DNA from: Nitrosopumilaceae archaeon
GTDB taxonomy: Archaea > Thermoproteota > Nitrososphaeria > Nitrososphaerales > Nitrosopumilaceae
NCBI GenBank assembly: GCA_965200155.1
Contig: CBDATR010000024.1
Coordinates: 448,673-512,672, forward strand
Length of the DNA stretch: 64,000 nt
Direction: 5' to 3'
The notes below the pieces were generated by a model, which was given only the letters and a program-made list of their open reading frames with translations, did no database searches and was not told the origin of the DNA. The translations under genes and the position numbers were made by a program. Positions 10,708 to 64,000 of this stretch are shown piece by piece (within the stretch, counting starts at the first letter, position 1; every line of letters begins with the position of its first letter).

Positions 10708-12162
10708 TCAGAACCGGTTCCACTGCTCCGCTGGATTGTTGGTGGGCTCTACACTGTCATATTCTAAGAATACGAACATGCCTGGTATGGCCTTATTCAA
10801 TCCTTTTACCTTCTTTTGTAGTTCAGTATCATCAACATCACAGTACTGATGCAGAATGGATTCTGCTCCTGTCTCAAATGAGTGTCGTAATTGCGCGGAC
10901 GGCCCGCAGTGATTCAGGGATTCCCGTGCGCTCCGGAACAATCCTTTCAGGTCGTTGTCAAGTTTGATCCGGGCGTCCTGAGCACCGGGATCGATATAGA
11001 ATCCTGCATGTAATGCCTGGGTATCGCGCAATAAATGCGCCCAACACAACTGGTGCTTCCCACCGTCATCAAACCGGCGGTACACAACGTACCTGTCCGT
11101 TACTATCGCTCCCTGGTAACCGTTCAGGTATTTGTTCACTACATTTGAACTCCTACTTTTGTCATATATGGACATCATCCACTCTTCGGCTCGCATCCCC
11201 CATACCCAGCCACGCCTACCCGCCAGTGATATACCAGTTTCGTCCACATGAATGCTGGGTGATTTTATTATATTTTCATGAATTGTTTCCATAAATGATT
11301 CACATGCATCGGCGGCCCTGGCAATTATGTTGTTTACTGCACCCACCGATATATTTAGGCCGAAGAGATCCTTCGAAATTACAGGTATGCGTTTTATTGG
11401 AATCTTTTCTGCGCGTAATGCAGTGATGGCACCGCATAATTGAACCCCAAAACTACCACTCTTTGGGACGCCAGCTGCTGGGGCCAGTTGTTTTTTGCCG
11501 CACATACATGCAGCCATTTCTATCATATGGTGGGCCTCCTCTATTTTGGCTGGTATTAATTCCGTTATGTGTCGTTGTTTCCAACCAATTTTTGTCATCA
11601 TATTGCCGCACTCACATATTGGTGTGTACTCAAAGGTGTGATGCACTACTCTGCCGGGGTTGTGGGAACGGGAAACCCCCTTGTGTCCCTTTTGAGCGCC
11701 AGCCTTTTTGGCTGATTTCGTACTGGCTTCTTTCTGTTGCTTATTATCTCCCTGTTTTCGCTTCTGCTCCTCCTGTTTTCGCTTCTTGTACTGGAGGGAT
11801 TGAAGGGATGGTGGCGAGTGAGCATTCTCATAATATTTAAGTCGCGTTGTGAGTACCACAATTTTCCCCTGTTTTTCTTTTAATTTCTCATTCAATTCAT
11901 TTACATAATTCCTAATAATTTGGAAATCTTGTGTGAGATTTCGTATTTCTTTTATGATGCGGGACACATATGCTTCCAATACTCTCACACGTTCCTTGTA
12001 ATGTGCAAGATCTTTCTTGGTAGACGCAAGCAAGCGACTCATTCGCAGTGTCGCCCCGCCCAAATACTTGTAATGTGCAAGATCTTTCTTGGTAGACGCA
12101 AGGGTATCCTGAAGAAGTTTATTTTCCAGTTCCAATTCCTTATAGGACCGGCGTCTTCTCAT
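10708..12162 (-). CDS. IS66 DDE transposase, C-terminally truncated by a scar
   Basis: Coiled coil, NAHSPPS, GAQKGH, CxC zinc, HVDETG, TDRY, QLCWAHLLR, EPTNNPAE. Confidence 0.9.
   Translation of the reverse strand: MRRRRSYKELELENKLLQDTLASTKKDLAHYKYLGGATLRMSRLLASTKKDLAHYKERVRVLEAYVSRIIKEIRNLTQDFQIIRNYVNELNEKLKEKQGKIVVLTTRLKYYENAHSPPSLQSLQYKKRKQEEQKRKQGDNKQQKEASTKSAKKAGAQKGHKGVSRSHNPGRVVHHTFEYTPICECGNMMTKIGWKQRHITELIPAKIEEAHHMIEMAACMCGKKQLAPAAGVPKSGSFGVQLCGAITALRAEKIPIKRIPVISKDLFGLNISVGAVNNIIARAADACESFMETIHENIIKSPSIHVDETGISLAGRRGWVWGMRAEEWMMSIYDKSRSSNVVNKYLNGYQGAIVTDRYVVYRRFDDGGKHQLCWAHLLRDTQALHAGFYIDPGAQDARIKLDNDLKGLFRSARESLNHCGPSAQLRHSFETGAESILHQYCDVDDTELQKKVKGLNKAIPGMFVFLEYDSVEPTNNPAEQWNRF
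11995..12102 (-). CRISPR. CRISPR-like mini-array inside IS66 transposase (2 identical repeats, one 36-bp spacer, in frame)
   Basis: Repeats 11995-12030 and 12067-12102; unique spacer 12031-12066. Confidence 0.7.
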
Positions 12163-13360: not shown

Positions 13361-13539
13361 GTATGAGTTCACCTACGTGTAAATTTACGCACAGCGGATC
13401 GCAGAGATTCAAGCACGAATTGAAGGTATGAGTTCACCTGTGTCTAAATTTACGTATAACTGATCGCGACAGTTAATGTGATTTGTGCATAAGATTCCGG
13501 AAGACGTGAACTCATACAATTGAAGACGTGAACTCGTAC
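13361..13539. mobile_element. divergent MITE (about 79 bp) with nested 92-bp MITE at 13426-13517
   Basis: Outer TIRs gtatgagttcac/gtgaactcgtac; inner TSD aattgaag. Confidence 0.85.
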
Positions 13540-23140: not shown

Positions 23141-23191
23141 GTATTAGCACTATATTAGTCCTTTAAAAAGTTGGTGGGTAACCGTTGCGCG

Positions 23192-24665
23192 TCAATAGTA
23201 CGAAAAGTAAGTCCACTTAGGATCCGGCGTACAGTAGTTCAGATTGCACAAGCCACGAAAGGCTATGGTAAAGAGAATAACAGAGGAATCAAGACAAGAG
23301 GCGTTGCCGCCACCAAAATGTATGAGTTCACGTCTTCCGGAATCTTATGCACAAATCACATTAACTGTAGCGATCAGTTGTGCGTAAATTTAGACACAGG
23401 TGAACTCATACACCAAAATAGCTCAAGACCTGAAACAAGACACGTGCGAAGATTGTGAACCAGAGAACGGGAACGACTCGAGTAAAGATGGGCAGGCCTA
23501 TGATACCAATCACCGCCACCCAGATACGAATGGTAACTGAAGCATATCACAAGGATCCCGCCGGAGTAAGTACGTATTGCAAAGAGGCTTAGACAGAATT
23601 ACAATATATCATATCGCGCAGTATATCGCAATAATGAAAAAGAACGGTACGGCAGGATCATCACCTGCAAAGTCAGAGTGGGTACGCTATGAGCGTAAAT
23701 ATTCCAATGCAATATGGCAGTATGAGTTCACGTCTTCCGGAATCTTATGCACAAATCACATTAACTGTAGCGATCAGTTGTGCGTAAATTTAGACACAGG
23801 TGAACTCACACATGTCGCACGTAGACTGGCATGTCATGAAAGATGAGCGCTTCAAGGGACTGAATCTCATAGATGATGCAACCGGGTGTATAGTCGGGGC
23901 GGCACTTTGAGCATGCAACCTCAGAGAACGCCGCTCTATTACTGAGACTGGCAATGAAACGATTCGGCGCCCCTGCATCCATACTATCTGATAACGGCGC
24001 GTGTTTCGTAGGACAATAAAGGGGCAAGAAAAGCTGGAAACCCACACTATTCTAGGAAGAACTGCTGGATCAAGACATCAGTATGAGTTCACCTGTGTCT
24101 AAATTTACGCATAACTGATCGCAACAGTTAATGTGATTTGTGCACAAGATTCCGGAAGACGTGAACTCATACAGACATCATACTAATCAATTCCAGACCA
24201 TACCACCCGCAGACAAATGGCAAACTGGAGCGCTTCCATAGAACGATTGAGGACGAGATATGGCATTCAATCTCCCACTGGGACCATGACCCCCGTCCTG
24301 CAGGCTTCACAGAACGATTGAGGACGAGATATGGCATTCAATCTCCCACTGGGACCATGACCCCCGTCCTGCAGGCTTCCACAGAACGATTGAGGACGAG
24401 ATATGGCATTCAATCTCCCACTGGGACCATGACCCCCGTCCTGCAGGCTTCCACAGAACGATTGAGGACGAGATATGGCATTATGACAGTCTCCGGGATT
24501 ATGTGGACTACCACAATGAGAGAAGATTGCACTTCTCACCGGATATAGATAACGGCGAAACGCCGCTTCAGGAATAAAAAGGCGACCCAGACAACTAGGG
24601 CAAATGATGCAAAATGGATGGAGCGGGATACCAATGACTAGCGGACCGACTTTTCATACATTACA
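23192..24665 (+). mobile_element. IS481-family element, degenerate, with three MITEs (23320-23411, 23720-23811, 24081-24172)
   Basis: Imperfect TIRs tcaatagtacgaaaagt / tgtaatgtatgaaaagt; 15-bp TSD ggtaaccgttgcgcg; remnants RYER...WHVDW, DDA, ILSDNG, QTNGKLERFH; MITE TSDs accaaaat and agacatca. Confidence 0.85.
24232..24482 (+). repeat. 36-bp duplicated IS481 sequence x4 separated by a foreign 36-bp insert x3 (CRISPR-like unit)
   Basis: Repeat gcttccacagaacgattgaggacgagatatggcatt; insert caatctcccactgggaccatgacccccgtcctgcag is absent from the IS481 copies near 61057 and 62600. Confidence 0.9.
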
Positions 24666-26103: not shown

Positions 26104-28266
26104 TTATTCGGGACACCCGTCGGTATCCTGATCTCCATCGTAATCCTCAGGAGAGTCAGGACACATGTCATTGGAATCCAGTACGCCGTCTAAATCAGAA
26201 TCATGAACAAACCGGGCCTGCTCCGGAGCTACATCCGGACAACCATCTTCGTCATTGAACTTGTTCCATGTCTCCGGGTTCACCGGACACTGGTCCAGCT
26301 CATCCCAATACCCGTCATTATCAGAGTCGCTCCTGCCCGGTCCCCCGCTACCGGCTGCAAGCGTATCCGGGCAGCCGTCCCAGTCCAGGTAATTGTTGGG
26401 CGTCTCCGGCTCAGTCGGACATGTGTCCCAGCGGTCATCGACGCCATCGTTATCAGCATCAGATATTACATAGCCGCCGGGTACCTCACTGTCTACTGTG
26501 TCCGGGCAGCCGTCAGTATCCTCGTACATGTTGTAGGTCTCAGGCTCCAAGATGCATTCGTCCACATCATTGGTTATGCCATCGCTGTCCGTATCGTGAA
26601 CCACTGTGTAAAAGTCCGGGCAGCCGTCGTCATCAAGAACGTTATTGTATGTCTCGGGCCTAGTAGGACACATATCGGTACTGTCAGGTATGCCGTCCCC
26701 ATCACTATCAAGAATGGCGGCACCGGGAGGCGCCACATCCGGGCAACCGTCCGCATCATTATACAGGTTGTATACCTCCGCCACATTAGGGCACATATCT
26801 ACATCATTAAAGAGACCGTCATTGTCATTATCGTGAATGCGGGGTATGTCATAATAGTCCGGGCAACCATCATCATCCTGGAACCGGTTAAAGTTCTCCC
26901 GTAGTGCAGGACACATATCTACAGAGTCAGGTATGCTGTCATAGTCCGAATCCAGCCATGTGTTTACTGAGACTATAGCCAAGTCCGGGCAGCCGTCCCA
27001 GTCCAGGTAATTGTTGGGCGTCTCCGGCTCAGTCGGACATGTGTCCCAGCGGTCATCGACGCCATCGTTATCAGCATCAGATATTACATAGCCGCCGGGT
27101 ACCTCACTGTCTACTGTGTCCGGGCAGCCGTCAGTATCCTCGTACATGTTGTAGGTCTCAGGCTCCAAGATGCATTCGTCCACATTATTGGGTATACCGT
27201 CACTGTCGCTGTCTTGAATTATGGAGTAAAAGTCCGGGCAGCCGTCGTCATCAAGAACGTTATTGTATGTCTCGGGCCTAGTGGGACATGAATCCAGAAC
27301 ATCCACAATACCGTCACCGTCGCTATCATCTAGTGTAGGCGGTCTCACCACAGAATCAGGGCAGCCGTCAGTATCCTCGTACAGGTTGTATGTCTCGCTG
27401 ACAAAGGGACACAGATCGTTTGCATCATGTATACCGTCAAGGTCATAGTCACCGGTCACCGAAAAGGGCAGAGTATCCGGGCAGCCGTCTTCATCCTGGA
27501 ACTGGTTAAAGACCTCCCTCATGTCAGGACACGAATCAGAGGAGTCCGGTATGCTGTCATAGTCCGAGTCCATCCATGTATTTACAGAAGATATGACCGA
27601 ATCCGGGCAACCATCCCGGTCCAGGTAGTTGTTATAGGTCTCCGGCTCAGTTGGGCACGCATCCCAGCGGTCATCGATACTGTCGCTGTCGGCATCAGAT
27701 AATACATAGCCACCGGGGGTCTGGCCATCTAGTGCATCAGGGCAGCCGTCAGTATCCTCGTACAGGTTATAGGTCTCCGGCTCAGTTGGGCACTGATCAA
27801 GTGTATCATGTACTCCGTCCCTGTCCGAGTCCATGGGTACCACATAGTCGTCCGGGCAGCCGTCATTGTCTTGTATACCGTTCATGGTCTCGTACTGTGT
27901 CGGACAGAGATCCACATCATCTGCAATTCCGTCTCCATCACTATCAGGACCGACTCCCGTGTCTACCGGCGAGACATCCGGGCAACCATCTTCATCCTCG
28001 TACCAGTTGTAGTTCTCCCGAATAGTGGGGCACTGATCAAGGTGATCCTGTATTCCGTCATAGTCGGCATCATACCAGGGGACAAAATCTGCCGGGCAAC
28101 CATCCACCACATTATCATACTGGGAGTCATAGTCCTCTATCAAGTTAGGACACAAGTCCATAATGTCCGGGACGCCATCACCGTCGGTATCCGGTGTGGC
28201 AAAGGCGGGTAGAGTGGATCCCAGTAGGACTGCCGCCGCCATAACAGAGTACTTGCCGGGTATCAC
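26104..28266 (-). CDS. secreted thrombospondin type-3 repeat protein
   Basis: Signal peptide; many DxDxDGIxDxxDxCP...N...DxDGCP units; GTG start inferred. Confidence 0.9.
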   Translation of the reverse strand: MIPGKYSVMAAAVLLGSTLPAFATPDTDGDGVPDIMDLCPNLIEDYDSQYDNVVDGCPADFVPWYDADYDGIQDHLDQCPTIRENYNWYEDEDGCPDVSPVDTGVGPDSDGDGIADDVDLCPTQYETMNGIQDNDGCPDDYVVPMDSDRDGVHDTLDQCPTEPETYNLYEDTDGCPDALDGQTPGGYVLSDADSDSIDDRWDACPTEPETYNNYLDRDGCPDSVISSVNTWMDSDYDSIPDSSDSCPDMREVFNQFQDEDGCPDTLPFSVTGDYDLDGIHDANDLCPFVSETYNLYEDTDGCPDSVVRPPTLDDSDGDGIVDVLDSCPTRPETYNNVLDDDGCPDFYSIIQDSDSDGIPNNVDECILEPETYNMYEDTDGCPDTVDSEVPGGYVISDADNDGVDDRWDTCPTEPETPNNYLDWDGCPDLAIVSVNTWLDSDYDSIPDSVDMCPALRENFNRFQDDDGCPDYYDIPRIHDNDNDGLFNDVDMCPNVAEVYNLYNDADGCPDVAPPGAAILDSDGDGIPDSTDMCPTRPETYNNVLDDDGCPDFYTVVHDTDSDGITNDVDECILEPETYNMYEDTDGCPDTVDSEVPGGYVISDADNDGVDDRWDTCPTEPETPNNYLDWDGCPDTLAAGSGGPGRSDSDNDGYWDELDQCPVNPETWNKFNDEDGCPDVAPEQARFVHDSDLDGVLDSNDMCPDSPEDYDGDQDTDGCPE

Positions 28267-28270
28267 AATA

Positions 28271-30421
28271 TCACTCCGGGCAACCGTCATGGTCATTATC
28301 ATTGTCATAATCTTCGGGCACATATACACAATCGTCCTCATCATTTATAATTCCATCAAGATCCTCGTCATGGACAAATCGAGACTGCTCCGGTACGGAG
28401 TCAGGACAGCCGTCCGCATCACTGTACTTGTTCCAGGTCTCAGGAGATAGCGGGCACAAGTCTACACCATCAGCATATCCATCCCCATCAGTATCGGTTA
28501 TGGCTGGTTGGGTTGAGCCCGCGGCTACTACATCGGGGCAGCCGTCCCAGTCCAGGTACTGGTTGTAGTTCTCAGGCTCGTCCGGACACGAATCCCACCT
28601 ATCCTCTATTCTGTCATTATCGGCATCTGGAAACTCAAACATTACGTCATCATCAGTTACCACATCAGGGCAGCCGTCGTGATCCATGTAGCGGTTGTAG
28701 TTCTCCGGCTGGGTTGGACAGGCGTCAACAAAGTCAAAGACACCATCCCGGTCACTGTCAGTTATCAGTACAAAGTTGTCCGGGCAGCCGTCAGTATCCA
28801 GCAGGCCATTAAACGTCTCGGCCCTAGTGGGACACAAATCCAGATTGTCCAGCAGGCCGTCACCATCACTGTCTATACTACTAACGTAGCCGGGCAGCCA
28901 GTCCGGGCAGCCGTCCGCATCCTCATACAGATTGTAGGTCTCCCTAGCCGTAGGACACATATCCTGGCTGTCCAGCAGACCGTCGCCATCAGTATCCAGG
29001 TCAGGGCCTGCCAGTACAGGCATGTCAGGGCAGCCATCCTCATCCAGATAGCCATTGTACCGTTCTGCATCGTTAATACATTGATCATTTACATCAGGAA
29101 TGCCATCATAGTCAGCATCGGCGAGCTGACCAGTATTGGTTCCCGGCATGTCAGGGCAGCCATCCCAGTCCAGGTACTGGTTGTAGTTCTCAGGCTCGTC
29201 CGGACACGAATCCCACCTATCCTCTATTCTGTCATTATCGGCATCGGGGAACTGGAACATTACAATATCATCAGTTACCACATCAGGGCAGCCGTCGTGA
29301 TCCATGTAGCGGTTGTAGTTCTCCGGCTGGGTTGGACAGGCGTCCAGCAGATTAATTATATTGTCATGGTCGGTATCATGAGAGTCGTCATTGTTATCCG
29401 GGCAGCCGTCTGTGTCCATGTAGCCATTCATGGTCTCCCGCTGGTTGGGGCACAAGTCTATCAAGTCTATTAACCCATCGCCATCAGCATCGGCCGAGGG
29501 TGCCCCGCCAGATACAGAATCCGGGCAGCCGTCGTGATCATTGTACATGTTGTACACTTCCGGAATATTGATGCACATATCCGCATCATCCAGTATGCCA
29601 TCTTTGTCCTGATCTCCGTTATAAGTTACGAACAAGGTATCCGGGCAGCCATCGTCGTCCTGGTATTTGTTATAGTTTTCTCTGCGCTCCGGGCATTGAT
29701 CCACATCATCATTAAGCCCGTCATAATCGGTGTCCGGTACCGTCTCTATGTTAAAGCCTGGTGTGTCAGGGCACCCATCCCAGTCTAAGTAGTTGTTAAA
29801 ATTCTCAGGCTCGTCCGGACACGAATCCCACCTATCCTCTATTCTGTCATTATCGGCATCTGGAAACTCAAACATTACGTCATCATCAGTTATTACGTCC
29901 GGACAGCCATCGGTGTCCAGGTAGTGGTTGTACAGCTCCTGCTGGAGCGGGCACTGGTCCACAGAATCGGATATACCATCACTGTCTGTATCCTTTAGGG
30001 TATGTCTGTCAGGGCAGCCGTCAGTATCATCTACGCCGTTAAAGGACTCTGGCTGGGTGGGGCAGTTGTCAATCAGATCTATAAAGCCGTCACCGTCAGT
30101 ATCCACAACATCAGAGGTTTGTTGTGGCGGCACATCCAGACAGCCATCACCGTCTTTGTATAGATTGTAATTCTCCCTTACCGTGGGACACAGGTCTAGG
30201 TGATCCTGTATTCCGTCATAGTCGGCATCATACCAGGGGACAAAATCGGCCGGGCAACCATCCACCACGTCATCATACTGGGAGTCATAGTCCTCCATTA
30301 GGTTTGGGCACTGATCCAAATCATTGGGGACACCATCACCGTCTAGGTCATTGATGGGAACCGCATAAGCAGAAGATAACCCCGCTACTAGTATTAACAT
30401 TGCAATTATAGCATGTCGCAC
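28271..30421 (-). CDS. secreted thrombospondin type-3 repeat protein
   Basis: Signal peptide MRHAII...AYA plus TSP3 repeats. Confidence 0.92.
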   Translation of the reverse strand: MRHAIIAMLILVAGLSSAYAVPINDLDGDGVPNDLDQCPNLMEDYDSQYDDVVDGCPADFVPWYDADYDGIQDHLDLCPTVRENYNLYKDGDGCLDVPPQQTSDVVDTDGDGFIDLIDNCPTQPESFNGVDDTDGCPDRHTLKDTDSDGISDSVDQCPLQQELYNHYLDTDGCPDVITDDDVMFEFPDADNDRIEDRWDSCPDEPENFNNYLDWDGCPDTPGFNIETVPDTDYDGLNDDVDQCPERRENYNKYQDDDGCPDTLFVTYNGDQDKDGILDDADMCINIPEVYNMYNDHDGCPDSVSGGAPSADADGDGLIDLIDLCPNQRETMNGYMDTDGCPDNNDDSHDTDHDNIINLLDACPTQPENYNRYMDHDGCPDVVTDDIVMFQFPDADNDRIEDRWDSCPDEPENYNQYLDWDGCPDMPGTNTGQLADADYDGIPDVNDQCINDAERYNGYLDEDGCPDMPVLAGPDLDTDGDGLLDSQDMCPTARETYNLYEDADGCPDWLPGYVSSIDSDGDGLLDNLDLCPTRAETFNGLLDTDGCPDNFVLITDSDRDGVFDFVDACPTQPENYNRYMDHDGCPDVVTDDDVMFEFPDADNDRIEDRWDSCPDEPENYNQYLDWDGCPDVVAAGSTQPAITDTDGDGYADGVDLCPLSPETWNKYSDADGCPDSVPEQSRFVHDEDLDGIINDEDDCVYVPEDYDNDNDHDGCPE

Positions 30422-30432
30422 GAGGATTCACC

Positions 30433-32871
30433 TCACAGATCGGGACAGCCATCGGTGTCCTGATCTCCATCGTAATCTTCGGCTTCTAACGGGCATTCAT
30501 CCTGATCGTTAATCTTGCCATCCAAGTCCAAGTCGTGCTTGTATCTTGACTGCTCTGGAATTACATCGGGACAGCCATCTGTATCCTCATACTTGTTCCA
30601 GACTTCTCTCTCGGTGGGACAGGAGTCTTCACTGTCTCGTATGCCATCGTTGTCGCTATCCAGGTTTTGATCAAAGCTCGGTATCACGTCCGGACAGCCG
30701 TCCAAGTCCACATAGCGGTTCCATACCTCAGAGAGGTTGGGGCACAAGTCCATTATGTCTGGTACGCCGTCACCATCACCATCTGAGAGACGCTCATCAG
30801 TGTCCGGACAGCCGTCGGCATCCTCAAAGCCATTGTATACCTCAGGCTGTAATGGACAGGCGTCACTGCGATCTACGATTCCGTCATTGTCCGTATCCAC
30901 CACATATGTAATGCTTATCTCATCCGGACAGCCATCCATGTCCTGGAAGCGGTTATACGTCTCGGGCACCAGTGGGCAGCGGTCAATGTCATCGATTACT
31001 CCGTCACGGTCACGGTCACGGTTTACATCATAGTAGTCAGGACAGCCGTCAAAGTCCAGTACACCGTTGAAGGTCTCAGACTGGGTTGGGCATAGATCGT
31101 CATAATCGGTGATTCCGTCATTGTCAGAGTCCGGTATTTCACTTCCGTCTAATCTCGTATCATGACAGCCGTCGGTATCATCAAAGCCGTTGTAGTTCTC
31201 CTTGACCAGCGGACACTCGTCTATGGAATTTGGTATTCCGTCAAAGTCGGTGTCATAATCTATCACGTATGACTCAAAGTCAGGACAGCCGTCCTCATCC
31301 TGGTATGAGTTGAAACGTTCCCGCTCTGTGGGACACTTGTCTATGGCATCCGGAATTCCGTCCAGATCCGCGTCCGGGTCCTGGGGATCGTCTGGGCAGC
31401 CGTCAGCATCAAATATTTGGTTCCAAGTCTCCGGTGTCAGCGGACATGTATCTATGGAATCAGGTATGCCGTCAGAGTCACTGTCGGTTATAAGGGAATC
31501 AGGGCAGCCGTCAGAGTCACGATAGCCATTGTATGACTCTGGTTGTGTGGGACACTTGTCATCAAGATCAATTATGCTGTCATTATCAAAGTCCAGTATT
31601 ACCTGCGGGGTCTCCTCCGGGCAGCCGTCGGAATCCTGTATAAGGTTGTACGTTTCCCGAAGCAGGGGACATGCATCAATGGAGTCTGGCAGGCCGTCAG
31701 AGTCACGATCTGGCGTGTTAAAGGAGTCAGGACAGCCGTCAGTATCATACACGCTATTGAATATTTCTGGTTGTGTGGGGCAGTGATCATTTAGGTCGTT
31801 TATGCCATCGCCATCACTGTCGGGCAGGGTGAACTCTTCCCCTACAAAGTCCGGACAGCCGTCCGTATCCATGACATAATTATAGACCTCGGCACTGTTT
31901 GGACATTCATCCACTGAATCCAGAATTCCGTCACGGTCGCTATCCCCGTCCAGTGACTGGGGCGGGATATCCGGGCAACCATCCTCGTCCTGATACGAGT
32001 TGTATCTTTCAGGATCAATAGGGCACATGTCGGACTCGTCCGGTACCCTGTCACCGTCTGCATCGCCGGGTGGCCCTTGCAGATTTGGTAATTGATCAGG
32101 ACAGCCGTCATAATCGGCGTAGTGATTCAATGTCTCCACATCATTTGGACAAATATCATATCTATCGGCCACGCCATCGGCATCCGTATCCATGAATGTA
32201 TCTCCATTGACTGCGTCTGGGCAACCATCGGTATCTCGGTAGTCGTTGTATACTTCCTTCTCGGTTATGCAAAAGTCCAGCACATCTATAATGCCGTCCT
32301 CATCGGTGTCCGCCTGTGCGGGATCCACCAGTACGTCAGGACAGCCATCGGTATCCATATAACGATTGTACGACTCTGGCTTCAATATGCACTCATCAAT
32401 TGCGTCCGGAATTCCATCACGATCAAGATCGTGACTTATGTTATAGTTGTCCGGACAGCCATCACCATCCTCAATTCCATTAAAGTTCTCCGCCCGGCTG
32501 GGACACAGATCAATGAGATCTATTATGTTGTCCCCATCACTGTCGGGAAGACTGGAACCTCCACTACCAGGGAGCGTATCCGGACAGCCATCCTCATCCT
32601 GATACTGATTATAGCGCTCTGCCACATCAGGACACTGATCGGATTCATCGTCTATGCCATCCTCATCCTCATCATACCAAGGAACAAAGTTCGAAGGGCA
32701 ACCATCCAGCTCTTCCGAATAATCCTCTTGCAGATTGGGGCACTTGTCGGCGGAATCAGGTATACCATCTCTATCTATGTCAGAGTCTGCATATGTATAA
32801 CCCATGGGCACCATCATTAAGGTAGTAACCAGCAGTATGAGGAACCCTAACATACGCAGACTCTCCGCCAT
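30433..32871 (-). CDS. secreted thrombospondin type-3 repeat protein
   Basis: Signal peptide plus TSP3 repeats. Confidence 0.92.
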   Translation of the reverse strand: MAESLRMLGFLILLVTTLMMVPMGYTYADSDIDRDGIPDSADKCPNLQEDYSEELDGCPSNFVPWYDEDEDGIDDESDQCPDVAERYNQYQDEDGCPDTLPGSGGSSLPDSDGDNIIDLIDLCPSRAENFNGIEDGDGCPDNYNISHDLDRDGIPDAIDECILKPESYNRYMDTDGCPDVLVDPAQADTDEDGIIDVLDFCITEKEVYNDYRDTDGCPDAVNGDTFMDTDADGVADRYDICPNDVETLNHYADYDGCPDQLPNLQGPPGDADGDRVPDESDMCPIDPERYNSYQDEDGCPDIPPQSLDGDSDRDGILDSVDECPNSAEVYNYVMDTDGCPDFVGEEFTLPDSDGDGINDLNDHCPTQPEIFNSVYDTDGCPDSFNTPDRDSDGLPDSIDACPLLRETYNLIQDSDGCPEETPQVILDFDNDSIIDLDDKCPTQPESYNGYRDSDGCPDSLITDSDSDGIPDSIDTCPLTPETWNQIFDADGCPDDPQDPDADLDGIPDAIDKCPTERERFNSYQDEDGCPDFESYVIDYDTDFDGIPNSIDECPLVKENYNGFDDTDGCHDTRLDGSEIPDSDNDGITDYDDLCPTQSETFNGVLDFDGCPDYYDVNRDRDRDGVIDDIDRCPLVPETYNRFQDMDGCPDEISITYVVDTDNDGIVDRSDACPLQPEVYNGFEDADGCPDTDERLSDGDGDGVPDIMDLCPNLSEVWNRYVDLDGCPDVIPSFDQNLDSDNDGIRDSEDSCPTEREVWNKYEDTDGCPDVIPEQSRYKHDLDLDGKINDQDECPLEAEDYDGDQDTDGCPDL

Positions 32872-50756: not shown

Positions 50757-52576
50757 GTACGAGTTCACGTGTTTTGATCACATAATAAGATAGAATGCAT
50801 CCCAGTTTTTTAATTATAATTGCATTCTGGCAGCAACCTCGTTCATTACAGAAAGGCCCTGAGCCCGCCATGTCTGAACACATATGGACATGCGGCGCAT
50901 GACCCTTTCACCACCCTTTATCTGGCCACTAATTTGTATGAGTTCACGTCTTCCAGAATCTTATGTACAAATCACATTAACTGTCGCGATCAGTTATGCG
51001 TAAATTTAGACACAGGTGAACTCATACACTAATTTTGCGGAATACCACTGCATATCAGAACCGGTTCCACTGCTCCGCTGGATTGTTGGTGTGCTCCACA
51101 CTGTCATATTCTAGGAATACGAACATGCCCGGTATGGCCTTATTCAACCCTTTTACCTTCTTTTGCAGTTCAGTATCATCAACATCACAATACTGATGCA
51201 TCTGCTCCTGCCTCAAATGAGTGTCGTAATTGCGCGGACGGCCCGCAGCGATTCACGTGCGCTCCGGATCAAATCGTTGTCAAGTTTGATCCGGGCGTCC
51301 TGATCACCGGGATCGATATAGAATCCTGCATATAATATACTGGTATCGCGCAATAAATGCGCCCAGATGGTGCTTCCCACCGTCATCAAACCGGTAACAC
51401 ATAACGTACCTGTCTGTGACTATCGCGCCCTGGTGACCGTTCAGGTATTTGTCCACTACATATGAACTCCTACTTTTGTATATCCTCCACTCTTCGGCCC
51501 GCATCCCCCATATCCAGCCACGCTTACCCGCCAGTGATATACCAGTTTCGTCCACATGAATGCTGGGTGATTTTTTCATAAATTGTTTCCATAAATGATT
51601 CGCATGCATCGGCGGCCCTGGCAATTATGTTGTTTGCCGCACCCACCGATATATTCAGGCCGAAGAGATCCCTCGAAATTACAGGTATGCGTTTTATTGG
51701 AATCTTTTCCGCACGTAATGCAGTGATAGCACCACATCTCAAACCACCACTCTCTGGGACGCCCGCTGCTGGGGCTAGTTGTTTTTTGCCGCACATGCAG
51801 GAGGCCATCTCTATAACATGAAGGGTCTCCTCTATTCTGGCTGGTATTAATTCTGTTATGCGTCGTTGTTTCCAACCACTTTTTGTCATTATATTGCTGC
51901 ACTCACATTGTGGAGTATGCTTAAAGGTATGACGCATTATTCTGTCGGGGTTGTGGGAACGGGAAACCCCCTTGTGTCCCTTTTGCGCGCCAGCCTTTTT
52001 GGCTGATTTAGTACTGGCTTCTGTCTGTTGCTTATTATCTCCCTGTTTTCGCGTATGAGTTCACCTGTGTCTAAATTTACGCACAACTGATCGCGACAGT
52101 TAATGTGATTTGTGCACAAGATTCCGGAAGACGTGAACTCATACCCTATGCTTCCAATACGCTCACACGTTCCTTGCAATGTGCAAGATCTTTCTCGGTA
52201 GCCACAAGACGTAGGACAAGGCACATGTTGCCCATGGCCCCTGCCTTGCAATGTGCAAGTTCTTTCTTGGTAGACGCAAGATTCCGTGCGGCGATATGGA
52301 TCTGAAGCAACAACGACCTTGCAATGTGCAAGTTCTTTCTTGGTAGACGCAAGGAGAGGCTCGCATATAATGAATCGCGTGCCCGTGACCTTGCAATGTG
52401 CAAGTTCTTTCTTGGTAGACGCAAGGGTATCCTGAAGAATCTGAATTTCCCGTTCCAATTCCTTATAGGACCGGCGTCTTCTCATTAGATTCTTATTGCA
52501 AATTTGGTATTTAAGCAAAATATTGTCATACCAATCTATACATCTTAGTGAATGATCAAAACACGTGAACTCATAC
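50757..52576 (-). mobile_element. IS66 element, degenerate, with MITEs at 50936-51027 (TSD actaattt) and 52053-52144
   Basis: Both TIRs; frameshifted transposase; deletion next to the 52053 MITE. Confidence 0.9.
52173..52425 (-). CRISPR. CRISPR-like array inside IS66 transposase: four 36-bp repeats, three unique spacers (36, 37, 36 bp)
   Basis: Repeat CTTGCGTCTACCAAGAAAGAACTTGCACATTGCAAG at 52390-52425, 52318-52353, 52245-52280 (identical) and degenerate terminal copy 52173-52208. Confidence 0.8.
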
Positions 52577-58257: not shown

Positions 58258-59834
58258 AGACCTTATGCGCATGATTGACAGTAACAGCCCATGTTGCTTC
58301 AAACTGGGGTGTATTTTATGGCACACAATCCGTCAAGCATGAACAATGTGAATGGCACCTGCCAGCACTAACGTATGTCGTGTAGTGGGGTAACCGGATC
58401 TTGATGAAGTATATCGGAAGTGAGCTAAACGGTTGTATGAGTTCACCTGTGTCTAAATTTACGCACAACTGATAGAACCGGTTACCAGTTAATGTGATTT
58501 GTGCACAAGATTCCGGAAGACATGAACTCATACCATTAATTTAGTGGATTTTCTGATGAGTAATATTCGAATTATAATAACACGGAAATTATGGACAGAT
58601 ATTTTTCAAGAATTTCTTGTACCTGGTATGCTTGTGCATAATGTGTAAATTATGCAACCCAGATACTACGAGTAGATCTTCCCGGAATTCCTCACGACTG
58701 CCATCATATACCTGACTTAATCTACGATATACCTTTAGCATTCGAATTACATTCTCGATTAATATGCGCCTTTTTGATACATATTGGTTGTATTTCCTTT
58801 CAGTTTTAGTGAGTGATTCCCTACCCCTGTATGGAATTATGACCTTTGCGCCGGGTAGGAAGTCTTTCATACCCTGGTATCCTGCATCTGCTATTACTGT
58901 TATCTTATCGGATGGTGGCGTGGTTGATTCTTTTAGGGACTTGCCCCATTTGCCACCGAGGGGAATATCATTCTTGAATATACCATAATCGTGTCTTTTT
59001 CCCTCATATACTCCACTTACGTGAATTATCAGTCTTTTCTTGTTTGATGTTATCTGTACGTTATACGTGTGGGTTTTTTGTTTACCAGAGTACATTGCCT
59101 CCTGATTTTTTTTAGGACGTTGTACGCGTACATGTGTCCCGTCAGTCTTTATCTCCCCTCCGGCTCGGCCTGGAACAATTTCCTTAAAGTCGGGTGTTGA
59201 CTTGATTTGTGATATTGCTTTTGCAACGGTATCTGCCGTTGGAAGTATCTTGATCAGTCCCTGCTTTGTAAACTGGATGTAACGGCATATGTTTGACTGG
59301 TTTATCTTGAGTATTGCTGCCAGCAGCTCCTGCTTTGTATTGCAGCGCAGGCGTATCAGTGTAACTAAGAGTACATGCCTGACCGGAAATTTGTTCACAT
59401 GGCCGCGATCATTTGTAAGTTCTAAGAATCGCCGTGCATCATCGCCTTCCAGGGACTCTACGTATTCTGTGAATCTGGTTAGTATCCATTTGAACTCTTC
59501 CGGGGTGCATCCGGTCAGGGAATGAAGCTGATCCTTGCGTTCTATGATGTCATCAAGATTTGAAACGAGGGCATTCTTTGTTTGAGCTTCAAGTTTGGCG
59601 TGCAGGTTTGTTACTTCGGCCTCGGACCTGGTGCGTAGCCGGTAGTACTCTGTGACTAACTGCTCCCTGGTGAGTTCTTCTGCTTTTAGCATACCTGGTA
59701 TTACAAAATTAGGTCTTAACTTTTCTGTTTCACACGAGTCTGTGGGAAAACCCATGATACTAGGTCAATTGTTCGTATCTAACAACTTGGTTTAGACGTG
59801 CAGGGTGGGAGAAGTGATTCTGCGCATACGGTCT
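58258..59834 (-). mobile_element. IS5/ISL2-like element inserted in a MITE; contains MITE 58435-58533
   Basis: TIRs agacc(t/g)tatgcgca; 3-bp TSD agt. Confidence 0.88.
58589..59755 (-). CDS. IS5/Harbinger-like DDE transposase, intact
   Basis: LTG...EF, HTH, DGT, YSGK.K.H, G..HD, ADAGYQG, N...SK.RI.IEN. Confidence 0.9.
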   Translation of the reverse strand: MGFPTDSCETEKLRPNFVIPGMLKAEELTREQLVTEYYRLRTRSEAEVTNLHAKLEAQTKNALVSNLDDIIERKDQLHSLTGCTPEEFKWILTRFTEYVESLEGDDARRFLELTNDRGHVNKFPVRHVLLVTLIRLRCNTKQELLAAILKINQSNICRYIQFTKQGLIKILPTADTVAKAISQIKSTPDFKEIVPGRAGGEIKTDGTHVRVQRPKKNQEAMYSGKQKTHTYNVQITSNKKRLIIHVSGVYEGKRHDYGIFKNDIPLGGKWGKSLKESTTPPSDKITVIADAGYQGMKDFLPGAKVIIPYRGRESLTKTERKYNQYVSKRRILIENVIRMLKVYRRLSQVYDGSREEFREDLLVVSGLHNLHIMHKHTRYKKFLKNICP

Positions 59835-60840
59835 AGTTAATGTGATTTGTGCACAAGATTCCGGAAGACGTGAACTCATACGTTATCTTATCGGATGGTG
59901 GCGTGGTTGATTCTTTTAGGGACTTGTCCCATTTGCCGCCAAGGGGAATATCATTCTTGAATATGCCATAATCGTGTCTTTTTCCATCATATACTCCACT
60001 GATGTGAATTATCAGTCTTGTTTGATGTTATCTGTACGTTATACGTGTGGGTTTTTTGTTTATCAGAGTACATTGCCCCCTGATTTTTTTCAGGACGCTG
60101 TACGCGTACATGTGTCCCGTCAGTCTTTATTTCCCCTCCGGCTCGACCGGGAACAATTTCCTTAAAGTCCGATGCTGACTTGATTTGCGAATTGCTTTTG
60201 CAACTGTATCGGCCGTTGGAAGTATCTTGATCAGTCCCTGCTTTGTAAACTGGATGTAACGGCATATGTTTGACTGGTTTATCTTGAGTATTGCTGCCAG
60301 CAACTCTTGCTTTGTGTTGCAGCGCAGGCGTATCAGTGTAACTAAGAGTACATGCCTGACCGGAAATTTGTTCACATGGCCGCGATCATTTGTAAGTTCT
60401 AAGAATCGCCGTGCATCATCGCCTTCCAGGGACTCTACGTATTCTGTGAATCTGGTTAGTATCCATTTGAACTCTTCCGGGGTGCATCCGGTCAGGGAAT
60501 GAAGCTGATCCTTGCGTTCTATGATGTCATCAAGATTTGAAACGAGGGCATTCTTTGTTTGAGCTTCAAGTTTGGCGTGCAGACTGTCAACTTTTCCACA
60601 CAAACTGTCATTTTTTCCACGCAGGCTTGTTACTTCGGCCTCAGACTCGGTGCGTAGAAGGTTGTACTCTGCTATTAACTGCTCCTTGTTGAGTTCTTCT
60701 ACTTTTAGCATACTGGATACCACAAGATTAGACCTTAACTTTTCTGTTTCGCACACGTGTTTGTGTTAGGCCAATCATTTGGATCTATAAACTTGGTTTA
60801 AACGTGTAAGGTGGGGCAAGTGATTCTGCGCATAAAGTCT

Positions 60841-61276
60841 AATAAAAGGGCAAAAAGAACTGGAAACCCACACTATTCGAGGAAGAACTGCTGGATCAAG
60901 ACATCATACTAATCAATTCCAGACCATACCACCCGCAGACAAATGACAAACTGAAGGTATGAGTTCACCTGTGTCTAAATTTACGCATAACTGATCGCGA
61001 CAGTTAATGTGATTTGTGCATAAGATTCCGGAAGACGTGAACTCATACAACTGAAGCGCTTCCACAGAACGATTGAGGACGAGATATGACATTATGACAG
61101 TCTCCGGGATTATGTGGACTACTACAATGAGAGAAGATTGCACTTCTCACTGGATATAGATAACGGCGAAACGCCGCTTCAGGAATAAAAAGGCGACCCA
61201 GACAATTAGGGCAAATGATGCAAAATGGATGGAGCGGGATACCAATGACTAGCGGACCGACTTTTCATACATTACA
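60841..61276 (+). mobile_element. IS481 right-part remnant with MITE 60957-61048 (TSD aactgaag)
   Basis: Right end ...ttttcatacattaca. Confidence 0.85.
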
Positions 61277-62414: not shown

Positions 62415-63485
62415 TGTAATGTATGAAAAGTCGGTCCGCTAGTCATTGGCATCCCGCTCCATCCATTTTGCATCATTTACCCTAATTGTCTGGATCGCCT
62501 TTTTATTCCTGAAGCTGCGTTTCGCCGTTATCTATATCCAGTGAGAAGTGCAATCTTCTCTCATTGTAGTAGTCAACATAATCCCGGAGACTGTCATAAT
62601 GCCATATCTCGTCCTCAATTGTTCTATGGAAGCGTCCAGTTTGCCATTTGTCTGCGGGTGGTATGGTCTGGAATTGATTAGTATGATGTCTTGATCCAGT
62701 AGTTCTTCCTCGGTATGAGTTCACCTGTGTCTAAATTTACGCATAACTGATCGCGACAGTTAGTGTGATTTGTGCACAAGATTCCGGAAGACGTGAACTC
62801 ATACCTTCCTCGAATAGTACGGGTTTCCAGTTCTTTTTGCCCTTTTATTGTCCTACGAAACACGCGCCGTTATCAGATAGTATGGATGCAGGGGCGCCGA
62901 ATCTCTTTATCGCCAGTCTCAGTAATAGAACGGCGTTCTCTGAGGTTACATGCTCAAATAGTGCCACCCCGACTATACACCCGGATGCACCATCTATGAG
63001 ATTCAGTCCCTTGAAGCGCTCATCTTTCATGACATGTCAGTCTACGTGCCACATTGCATTGGAATATTTACGCTCATAGCGTACCCACTCTGACTTTGCA
63101 GGTGATGATCCTGCCGTACCGTTCTTTTTCATTATGCAATATACTGCGCGATATGATATATTGTAATTCTGTCTAAGCCTCTTTGCAATACGTACTACTC
63201 CGGCGGGATCCTTGTGATATGCTTCCGTTACCATTCGTATCTGGGCAGCGGTGATTGGTATCATGGGCCTGCCCATCTTTACTCGAGTCGTTCCCGTCCT
63301 CTGGTTCACAATCTTCGTACGTGTCTTGTTTCAGGTCTTGAGCTATTTTGGTGGAGGTAACGTCTCTTTTGCGCTGTCTTACTATTGATTTCTCTGTTAT
63401 TCTCTTTACCATGGCCTTTCGTGGCTTGCGCAATCTGAACTACTGTACGCCGGATCCTAAGCGGACTTACTTTTCATACTATTGA
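62415..63485 (-). mobile_element. IS481 element, degenerate, with MITE 62713-62804 (TSD cttcctcg); duplicated left end to 63620
   Basis: Both ends; frameshifted integrase-type transposase. Confidence 0.87.
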
Positions 63486-64000
63486 CTATTTTGCTTGTGG
63501 CAACGCCTCTTTTGCGCTGTCTTACTATTGATTTCTCTGTTATTCTCTTTACCATCTGGCTTGTGCAATCTGAACTACTGTACGCCGGATCCTAAGCGGA
63601 CTTACTTTTCATACTATTGAATTGTTGGGTGCGATTCATTATACTAGTATATAAGATCGAAGTTTTTAACTTTTATCTTGCTTCAAAGTACCATATTTAG
63701 CTGCACACAATACCATATTGACATGCCAAATTAACCACCCCCTTGGGGGCGCGCAAATAAGCCTGTGATAATTGTGATATTTTGATCAAATTAGTCGCCC
63801 AAAGACTTATGGTGGCCGCTATATGTGAGACGCCATGATAAAAAGCAAGATCGGACATGTTAGCGGTGTGTTTGAACAGTTGCCCGGGGGTGACCTAAAC
63901 GGCTACCTCATGACATGCGTGAACATTTTTAGATAGTATGAAAAATGTAATCTGCAATGGAAAATCTAAGTGTAGCACAATGGCAATCGGAGGTAATTGA

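Follow-up and report, generated by a model that had tools for sequence, protein, structure and literature searches.

Neo-CRISPR loci, which arise from noncanonical spacer integration, were described by Nivala, Shipman & Church (2018, Nat Microbiol 3:310; via PMC7054753, bioRxiv 10.1101/148544, and PMC9456107) for an E. coli type I-E system with over-produced Cas1-Cas2 and supplied oligonucleotides. For the natural occurrence of such loci there was "circumstantial evidence" in two other species, and its frequency was called unclear (bioRxiv 10.1101/148544). The two sites attacked by Pyrococcus furiosus Cas1-Cas2 are defined by a leader-repeat junction motif together with spacing, and the off-target sites of this enzyme in vitro, on plasmids and with a 30-nt repeat, share short features with the repeat (PMC6698737). 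The type I-G Cas4/1-Cas2 itself carries out both the processing of its prespacers and their directional integration (Dhingra & Sashital 2023, PMC10504553); in canonical type I-G adaptation the prespacers are PAM selected and the target is the leader-repeat junction. Off-target spacer acquisition is also one proposed origin of stand-alone arrays (Shmakov 2020, CRISPR J 3:535, cited in PMC13142298). Minisatellites expand by slippage or unequal crossing-over.

We analyzed a 64,000-nt stretch of the genome of a Nitrosopumilaceae archaeon (the window), in which a short tandem array lies inside a decayed IS481-family element. The array is like the neo-CRISPR loci of Nivala et al. in having a spacer-sized insert, a repeat-length duplication, and a non-CRISPR site that resembles the natural integration site, and its mechanism is likely of this known kind, namely, noncanonical spacer integration. 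It differs from those loci in being natural, archaeal, and of type I-G Cas4/1, and also in that approximately 66 distinct inserts are present in a single genome, with half of these inserts taken from self and some of the units tandemly amplified. As with the P. furiosus enzyme, the sites share short features with the repeat, but here the products are fixed in a genome and follow a 36-37-nt ruler. The Cas4/1-Cas2 protein family is the same as that of canonical type I-G adaptation, whereas the target is an IS and no donor PAM was found. Unlike the stand-alone arrays of Shmakov 2020, which were found with detectors, the neo-arrays described here have arbitrary host or IS sequence as repeats and mostly one spacer, and we infer that standard CRISPR detectors might miss most of them. 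The locus resembles a minisatellite in its 72-nt unit, 3.5 copies, and small intercopy differences, but its seed duplication is attributed to an integrase and not to slippage. No natural case of this scale was found in the literature searched, from which supplements were excluded.

Structure of the array and origin of its insert

Tandem Repeats Finder returned 19 rows for the window, only one of which had a period of 72, at positions 24232-24482 (3.5 copies, 98% matches, score 488). The locus has the layout R-I-R-I-R-I-R, in which four 36-nt IS481-family segments (R) alternate with three identical 36-nt inserts (I), and the 72-nt unit is in frame (24 codons) (Table 1). R was found at 6 sites in the window at ≤3 mismatches and I at three, all with 0 mismatches, compared to 0.00 expected by chance for either. 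Outside the array, R occurs as single copies at 61058-61093 (+ strand) and 62598-62633 (- strand), and R1 is 100% identical to the R of other copies of the IS, such as that at C5:83399-83434. The original prediction, which was made from sequence alone, held that 36 bp of IS481 sequence is duplicated around a 36-bp insert in a 72-bp unit occurring three times and that the IS481 copies near 61057 and 62600 have one R and no insert, and both of these claims were confirmed.

Table 1. Features of the array and of the IS481-family copy that carries it, in window positions (a caret marks a junction in the text)
Feature	Positions	Strand	Remarks
Decayed IS481-family copy hosting the array	23190-24665	+	Repeated-sequence coverage ~90 within, 1-2 outside
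MITE insertion 1 in host IS copy	23315-23410	-	Repeat coverage
MITE insertion 2 in host IS copy	23720-23811	-	Repeat coverage
MITE insertion 3 in host IS copy	24081-24172	+	Ends 59 nt upstream of array
R1, 36-nt IS-derived repeat	24232-24267	-	C>T change (CCATAG variant); leader-distal copy if read on minus strand
I1, 36-nt insert	24268-24303	.	Identical to C9:50235-50270 (-)
R2, 35 nt	24304-24338	-	1-nt deletion, CC>C; placed at 24303-24338 by mismatch search
I2, 36-nt insert	24339-24374	.	Identical to I1
R3, 36 nt	24375-24410	-	Mismatch search
I3, 36-nt insert	24411-24446	.	Identical to I1
R4, 36 nt	24447-24482	-	Reverse complement starts AATGCC, the pseudo-repeat 5' end
Pseudo-leader flank	24483-24497	-	Minus strand: ...gactgtcaT immediately before AATGCC

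The host IS copy is broken up by three MITEs, whose family has 577 near-full-length copies genome-wide, and by a 215-nt expansion. Its assignment to the IS481 family rests on a subthreshold match: the best NCBIfam match of the longest related open reading frame was the IS481 transposase (142.7 bits, E = 1.6e-41), with a score below the cutoff of 224 because every copy of this IS is decayed; the Pfam matches were rve (46.6 bits) and rve_3, and the longest open stretch in any copy of this IS in the genome is ≤278 aa.

The insert matches G000 C9:50235-50270 exactly, and this is its sole occurrence in the genome besides the array. Neither insert junction is ambiguous, since on each side the sequence next to the donor departs from that next to the insert in the array. 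The donor is native, as the alignment with another genome of the same genus (G002) runs through the donor sequence with the surrounding context preserved. The insert had been predicted to be foreign, and this part of the prediction failed; the proposed comparison of the insert with viral and host sequences led to the host donor, and there were no exact matches in the viral contigs searched or in the genomes of other species searched.

We considered whether the insert is instead an ancestral or alternative IS481 allele or the product of recombination with another IS variant; an ancestral allele would have refuted the original prediction. Nothing beyond the in-frame length of 72 nt supports this. 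The insert is absent from the other approximately 90 copies and fragments of the host IS in the genome, with BLAST coverage of the locus at approximately 90 over the IS flanks versus 4 over the insert part, and the IS-like matches in 9 of 9 genomes of the same genus span the flanks only, without the insert. A further 41 R-like sites genome-wide (≤6 substitutions) are all single. The identity of the insert to a native, single-copy chromosomal sequence that is kept in a congener also argues against an IS481 allele, and this explanation can be set aside almost entirely.

An assembly or strain-mixing artifact of the metagenome-assembled genome is very unlikely. In its favor, the genome is a draft of 51 contigs with 87.6% completeness, and short reads make it difficult to establish exactly how many copies of a 72-nt tandem repeat are present. 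Against it, contig pieces of 100-102 nt in which I stands between R sequences, with 0 differences, were found in runs of three studies (X5, X6, and X10); these public runs are available as contigs only, fragmented by repeats, and one of them is possibly the source sample. In addition, the four R copies bear distinct variants, and to our knowledge no artifact would produce 36+36 structures at 53 targets that have a motif in common. A joint in run X10 that skips 24239-24455 was considered as a polymorphism and rejected, as the piece carries other differences and is probably from another copy of the IS.

The type I-G system and the recurrence of R-I-R structures

The genome encodes one Cas1, a full-length Cas4g/Cas1g fusion (NF049935, 710.7 bits versus a cutoff of 560, profile positions 1-546 of 546) that retains every column invariant across three Cas4/1 proteins of the same genus. 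The cas2 gene neighbors cas4/1 (TIGR01573, 35.4 bits, over the cutoff), with a neo-array of 148 bp separating the pair; in G005 and G008, cas4/1 and cas2 are adjacent. On the far side of the array from these two genes are those for Cas3g (TIGR02621, 709.1 bits), a Cas3-extension protein, Csb2 (TIGR02165, 284.5 bits), and Csb1 (TIGR02570, 72.8 bits), with the three scores given all over their cutoffs; the search for type I-G components left out the large subunit (Csx17/Cas8g). The canonical array beside cas4/1-cas2 contains 289 repeats, and all 289 are exactly 36 nt long. Its 288 spacers range from 34 to 57 nt, with lengths of 35, 36, 37, 38, and 39 nt found for 16, 85, 101, 63, and 15 of them, respectively. 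None of the 288 matched a chromosomal locus outside the array; the 11 with any match in the genome comprised 10 with matches inside the array and 1 with a partial match to another neo-array.

Genome-wide, 70 R-I-R junction sets were found, with 66 distinct inserts and 53 distinct targets. When the main array was excluded, direct repeats of 33 to 42 nt occurred 62 times at spacings of 71 to 75, versus 45 times in total at the other 61 spacings from 45 to 110. The lengths of the R runs peaked at 36 (20 runs) and 37 (30 runs); in the array studied here, the 36 nt of R equals the canonical repeat length and the 36 nt of I falls within the canonical spacer range. Near-full-length donors elsewhere in the genome were identified for 34 of the 66 distinct inserts, and of these 34 inserts, 24 matched at 100% identity and 28 had single-copy donors. 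Some of the neo-arrays have more than one distinct spacer (e.g., C9:70400/70477, C24:237593/237669, and the IS66 site). The original prediction would have been refuted by the lack of cas1 in the lineage or by the absence of other 36+36 events, and neither was the case, as shown by the intact Cas4g/Cas1g with cas2 and by the 70 junction sets. Its claim that the same strict ruler of 36 applies here and in the IS66 arrays held only in part, with the ruler found to be 36-37 nt.

No R-I-R events were detected in 400 kb each of two same-genus genomes, G003 and G005, which were not scanned whole. G005 has an intact Cas4g/Cas1g and yet 0 events in the 400 kb scanned, and therefore possession of the enzyme is not sufficient. 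Period-75 matches in G003 were considered as R-I-R events and rejected, since they are a protein-coding tandem repeat.

As a separate observation, the event spacing was divisible by 3 in 30 of 59 cases, versus 35% of canonical periods (binomial P = 0.011), with no difference between events inside long open frames (9/18) and those outside them (21/41). The de-duplication behind these counts was faulty in that IS66-carried copies were left unmerged, and no conclusion about in-frame selection was drawn.

The targets share a short motif. On the minus strand, the array site reads gtcaT^AATGCC, compared to gcagT^ATTTCC at the canonical leader-repeat junction (motif cAgT^ATTTC), and the T at -1 in the pseudo-leader flank is also found in the real leader. 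The sequence T-[G/T]-C was present at positions 3-5 of one R end in 28 of 49 unique sites, versus 5.9 ± 2.2 (maximum of 13) in 500 sets of matched random sites; the other 21 sites lacked it. Positions that were not used for orienting the 28 motif sites agree with the real leader end: 14 of the sites have A at -3 and none has T there, 14 have T at -1, and only 1 has T at +1. Overall, the targets resemble the repeat only weakly, at 4.48 of the first 10 nt, versus 3.78 ± 0.18 for random sites. The predicted dissimilarity of the target thus failed in part, and the target consensus that had been proposed as a check was obtained, in the form of this junction-like motif.

No PAM consensus emerged from the flanks of the donors, whether these were taken raw or were first oriented with the target motif, or from five flanks recovered from overlapping canonical spacers. 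TTN was on the expected side in only 2-3 of 11 oriented events, and the donor of I is without it. The missing donor PAM counts against the integrase reading, since one would expect a Cas4 domain that works to select for a PAM.

The donor of I sits 7-8 nt from a MITE end. Transposon-excision breaks at MITE ends were considered as a source of prespacers and rejected because donors are not enriched there: of the 28 single-copy donors, 1 lay ≤10 nt and 2 lay ≤50 nt from a MITE end, versus 3.0% and 5.8% of random sites, respectively. We also considered Cas-independent origins of the array, in the form of either an aberrant reaction of a transposase or replication template switching, with a fork-stalling/microhomology jump to C9 followed by a return to the IS. 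The transposon-rich region, with three MITEs in the host IS copy, and the proximity of the donor to a MITE end can be cited in support. However, there is no microhomology at either junction, the 36+36 lengths match CRISPR repeat and spacer lengths, and approximately 66 parallel events have in common both the ruler and a motif that resembles the leader-repeat junction. Furthermore, donors generally are not near MITE ends, and the 400-kb samples of two same-genus genomes are without such events. A Cas-independent origin is therefore very unlikely.

Proposed formation of the array and its significance

The reading that we consider likely is that the organism's own type I-G Cas4/1-Cas2 integrated a 36-bp self prespacer into a dead IS481-family copy, although there are no direct data on integration, activity, transcript, or population polymorphism. 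This supports, with the corrections given above, the original prediction of a Cas1-Cas2-like integrase inserting spacers off target. In the proposed pathway, a prespacer would be cut out of C9:50235-50270 in the chromosome of the organism itself, and the integrase would meet an IS site resembling the leader-repeat junction, a resemblance that is itself shown. As inferred from the product, the first strand transfer would occur at the T^AATGCC junction and the second on the other strand, 36 bp away, at a distance set by the ruler for a 36-bp repeat, and gap filling would then double the 36-bp target to give R-I-R. This structure may have grown to R-I-R-I-R-I-R when the 36-bp repeats slipped during replication or recombined unequally, and the C/T change in R1 and the 1-nt deletion in R2 would have come later.

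The amplification step is an inference. An integrase does not normally make three identical spacers, and tandem amplification, which had been predicted to follow the insertion, is the likeliest route to the three identical units. The alternative is that the same integrase inserted one and the same prespacer three times in succession at the pseudo-leader end, without slippage. Adjacent identical units were found at 6 of 53 neo-array targets, versus 1 duplicated spacer among the 288 canonical spacers; this excess is not explained by slippage alone and hints at a process beyond it, and the neo-arrays with more than one distinct spacer did gain spacers repeatedly. Against successive integrations, the donor is single copy and no more abundant than others, MITE ends are unsupported as a recurrent source of DNA ends (1/28 versus 3.0%, as above), and it would be very improbable for one 36-mer, with identical ends, to be captured on three occasions from a genome of 2.4 Mb. 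We consider this alternative unlikely and prefer amplification after integration.

The array produced by integration and amplification is likely inert, because the hairpin seen in the true repeat is missing from R and a perfect self-match is tolerated; no RNA data are available. R folds at -5.5 kcal/mol on the minus strand (z -1.2) and at -3.1 kcal/mol on the plus strand (z +0.25), whereas the true repeat forms an 8-bp hairpin and reaches -14.3 kcal/mol (z -2.85). What would be expected of a functional array is also unmet in that R shares only short end motifs with the true repeat and in that the three spacers are identical and self-derived rather than distinct or invader derived. The view of the locus as a natural snapshot of de novo array formation is thus supported as regards the origin of a CRISPR-like array, with the array itself probably inert.

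A bolder reading, to which we lean slightly less than to its opposite, is that the type I-G Cas4/1-Cas2 is a genome-wide insertional mutagen in this sponge-associated archaeal lineage. It would write PAM-less pieces of self at a minimal junction-like motif (A-N-T^V-W-T-K-C), including at its own cas4/1-cas2 junction and in active-looking transposase genes, and the resulting proto-arrays would amplify more readily than true arrays. If this is true, the genome records the intrinsic specificity of the integrase and the unfiltered ratio of self to nonself capture, and the first steps in the birth of a new CRISPR array from arbitrary sequence are visible in it.

On the reading that we favor, the locus and its approximately 65 sister events form a natural, internally controlled data set on off-target spacer integration. 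Approximately half of the inserts at the off-target sites are self, versus none in the working array, and it would therefore be autoimmunity that filters the array, with the integrase itself being nondiscriminating. In this decaying symbiont genome, Cas1-Cas2 would disrupt genes and give rise to insertions of 72-75 bp and to new tandem repeats, and the events that it has left may offer a rare chance to see in nature how CRISPR-like arrays originate.

The array and the origin of its insert

At the array locus, Tandem Repeats Finder returned a single array (period 72, 3.5 copies, 98% matches, score 488), which sequence reading and pattern searches resolved as R1-I-R2-I-R3-I-R4. Here R is 36 nt of an IS, coding for the conserved ...ERFHRTIEDEIWH... 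portion of an rve-type transposase, and I is a 36-nt insert whose three copies show zero differences. R1 carries a single C>T change, R2 lacks one base (35 nt), and R3 and R4 are the same in sequence. The best family match of the host IS was IS481 at 142.7 bits, under the curated cut-off because all copies are decayed; approximately 90 copies or fragments of this IS481-like element, including the host copy, are present in the genome, and three MITE insertions also lie inside the host copy. The assembly carries 577 near-full-length copies of this MITE (~95-111 nt, with GTATGAGTTCAC...GTGAACTCATAC as its terminal inverted repeats), and many IS copies contain it.

In the source assembly (GCA_965200155.1; 2.38 Mb, 51 contigs), I was found in this array and in one further exact copy on the minus strand of contig C9, here called the donor. 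Donor and array flanks are unlike each other on both sides, and therefore the 36/36 boundaries are exact and microhomology is absent. The remaining 41 R-like sites of the genome are all single, BLAST coverage goes from ~90 on the IS flanks to 4 over the insert, and in all of the same-genus genomes (9/9) IS-like matches are restricted to the flanks of the insert. The insert is a derived state, not ancestral IS sequence. The genome of a same-genus relative, G002, aligns through the donor sequence in the same context, with the same downstream gene adjoining, and the donor is native sequence. An exact search for I gave zero matches in viral contigs or other species' genomes.

These results confirmed the original prediction that a 36-bp IS481 segment is duplicated around a 36-bp insert in a 72-bp unit occurring three times, and its observation that two other IS481 copies have one copy and no insert also held (61058-61093 and 62598-62633, one R each without I). 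The claim that the insert is foreign failed: the suggested comparison with viral and host sequences gave only the conserved host match, and the insert is self-derived. Derivation from an ancestral IS481 allele, named as a possible refutation, was not met, given the single sites and the relatives.

Contig pieces of 100-102 nt in which R sequences flank I, without a single difference, were present in three public sequencing runs from three studies (X5, X6, and X10, labeled as sponge metagenome or coded organisms), and a fourth run (X1) gave depth at the array locus. The assembly may derive from one of these runs, and contigs are uninformative on copy number or polymorphism.

Coordinates of the array and other features (bare positions, window; C numbers, contigs of the source assembly)
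Feature	Coordinates	Remarks
R-I-R array, the finding	24232-24482	
Host IS element of array	~23190-24665	
Donor of I	C9:50235-50270 (-)	
R-I-R	11995-12102	IS66-family transposase gene
Multi-spacer array	52244-52426	IS66 target identical to that at 11995-12102
Other IS66 hotspot sites	C10:6462, 83012, 210130; C13:25654; C24:97241; C31:2830; C51:127	
Overlapping targets	C24:352098-352300	events at 352098 and 352190
Off-target insert	C25:4760-4868	overlaps spacer 58 (C9:75210-75246)
Cas4g/Cas1g fusion, full-length	C9:68770-70419	710.7 bits vs cut-off 560
cas2	C9:70569-70844	downstream of cas4/1
Canonical CRISPR array	C9:71011-92087	289 repeats, 288 spacers
Neo-array between cas4/1 and cas2	C9:70400-70590	two spacers, 148 nt
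MITE (examples)	13420-13525, 24081-24172, 60951-61052	about two dozen in window
Internally repetitive region	26107-32673	units ~114-126 nt, 20-37 copies per family (repeat search); likely one very large repeat-protein gene, minus strand (presumed, untranslated)
Tandem repeat	63338-63620	Tandem Repeats Finder: period 143, 2.0 copies, 89% matches; adjoins IS481-family copy at 62503-63433
Two neighboring copies of another transposase-like gene	58589-60756	one intact 388-aa frame; one broken (209-aa frame plus fragments); common 300-nt direct repeat, 98% identity

Recurrence, ruler, and target motif

The source assembly, with the canonical array left out, was scanned at all spacings from 45 to 110 for direct repeats 33-42 nt long. 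Spacings of 71, 72, 73, 74, and 75 nt gave 4, 26, 18, 8, and 6 direct repeats, respectively (62 combined), and the other 61 spacings together gave 45. The commonest lengths of repeat runs were 36 nt (20 runs) and 37 nt (30 runs). Among inserts delimited by a donor, at least four have a duplication of exactly 36 nt and at least two have one of exactly 37 nt, giving a ruler of 36-37 nt. Clustering grouped the events into 70 R-I-R junction sets, which comprise 66 distinct inserts and 53 distinct target sequences; three of these lie in the window, the finding included. At one of the other window sites (11995-12102), a 484-aa IS66-family frame remains open across the 24-codon insertion.

One 36-37-nt target in the IS66-family transposase gene (183.5 bits, above the cut-off) is a hotspot with 10 junction sets and several different inserts. 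One of these inserts is common to 5 IS copies, and the element therefore apparently transposed after integration.

The targets are diverse, with a tendency to N-W-T-[G/T]-C at one end of R. T-[G/T]-C occupied positions 3-5 in 28 of 49 unique sites, compared to 5.9 +/- 2.2 (maximum 13) in 500 matched random sets. Sites were oriented by this motif, and positions outside it were then compared with the leader-repeat junction, ...gcAgT-ATTTCC (hyphen at the junction). Position -3 (A in 14/28, T in 0/28), position -1 (T in 14/28), and position +1 (T in just 1/28) all agreed with the junction. Clear conservation was not found in the remainder of R across targets; likeness to the first ten repeat bases (4.48 versus 3.78 +/- 0.18 for random) and the last ten (4.33 versus 3.82 +/- 0.16) was modest and above random. 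The R of the window array matches the motif on the minus strand (gtcaT-AATGCC). On contig C24, the 36-37-nt targets of two independent integrations overlap, and these integrations begin on opposite strands of a TAATGC...GCATTA palindrome. The targets thus resemble the in vitro off-target sites of P. furiosus Cas1-Cas2, where a junction motif defines one end and a ruler sets the other (PMC6698737).

An integrase inserts one spacer per event. Three independent captures of the identical 36-mer could in principle explain the three units of the window array, but this is very unlikely for a single-copy donor with one spacer per event. The 36-nt repeats would allow the 72-nt unit to multiply by slippage or unequal recombination, and we infer this as the likely default, which leaves an excess of identical units unexplained. 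Five more neo-arrays (off-target arrays outside canonical CRISPR) have 2-4 identical units each, one of them also with a different spacer, so that identical units occur at 6 of 53 neo-array targets, versus one duplicated spacer among 288 canonical ones.

The type I-G system and the sources of spacers

The source genome, whose small-subunit rRNA scored 1437.6 bits with the archaeal model versus 1093 with the bacterial one, has exactly one Cas1, the Cas4g/Cas1g fusion, which retains all columns invariant across three same-genus orthologues. Type I-G Cas4/1 alone processes and orients prespacers (PMC10504553). All canonical repeats are exactly 36 nt and 287 are identical; the terminal one is degenerate, which places the leader on the cas2 side. 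Canonical spacers are mostly 36 (85), 37 (101), or 38 nt (63), with 16 of 35 nt and 15 of 39 nt. Cas3g, a Cas3-extension protein, Csb2, and Csb1 lie on the far side of the array, and the system is type I-G.

A neo-array also separates the stop of cas4/1 from the start of cas2. Its duplicated 36-37 nt include stop and start, so both genes remain open; they abut in two same-genus relatives, G005 and G008, which represent the empty site. The donors of its two spacers are on C10 and C24. A bearing on integrase fidelity is conceivable, its effect being unknown.

Near-full-length donors elsewhere in the genome were found for 34 of the 66 distinct off-target inserts (24 donors 100% identical, 28 single-copy), versus 0 of 288 canonical spacers matching the chromosome outside the array. 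Only 11 canonical spacers had any match: 10 matched inside the array, and one overlapped an off-target insert on C25 by 28 nt. The simplest reading, which we infer, is that the integrase takes up self DNA freely and that autoimmunity would purge self-targeting spacers from the working array, such spacers being harmless where no crRNA is made. The C25 insert and canonical spacer 58 overlap on opposite strands, and therefore one unknown foreign element was sampled both on-target and off-target. Contig C10 (23% of the assembly) holds 16 of the 28 single-copy donors, spread over its 540 kb, possibly because acquisition is concentrated there or because of a copy-number effect.

Relatives, function, and significance

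Approximately 10 events per 400 kb are expected from the density in the source genome. Zero R-I-R events were found in the 400 kb scanned of either G003 (same genus, no Cas4g/Cas1g match) or G005 (intact Cas4g/Cas1g, 724.9 bits); the phenomenon is therefore lineage-specific, and the enzyme alone is insufficient. Period-75 matches in G003 were rejected as R-I-R, being a coding tandem repeat.

The two strands of R fold at -5.5 and -3.1 kcal/mol, versus -14.3 kcal/mol for the true repeat, whose 8-bp hairpin is missing from R. With no hairpin, a spacer perfectly matching the chromosome, and a dead IS, the array is, as inferred from sequence alone, probably an inert scar.

The original prediction of a Cas1-Cas2-like integrase inserting spacers off-target was supported by ruler, enzyme, recurrence, and motif. 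Absence of further 36+36 events together with a lack of cas1 in the lineage would have refuted it; neither applied, given the 70 junction sets and the full-length Cas4g/Cas1g with cas2. The suggested target consensus proved to be a short leader-repeat-junction-like motif, present at just over half of the unique sites.

Over-production of Cas1-Cas2 in E. coli leads to off-target integration and "neo-CRISPR" formation (Nivala et al. 2018). A preprint citing that work (bioRxiv 10.1101/148544) describes natural evidence as circumstantial, from two other species, with frequency unclear, and off-target acquisition is among the proposed origins of isolated arrays (Shmakov 2020, cited in PMC13142298). 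The literature searched, supplements being outside the search, contained no description of dozens of off-target integrations in one natural genome. The array is very likely a natural instance of this known mechanism, off-target spacer integration, with integration by the enzyme inferred, and its high interest lies in the scale, the contrast between self-derived inserts and canonical spacers, and the readable target motif.
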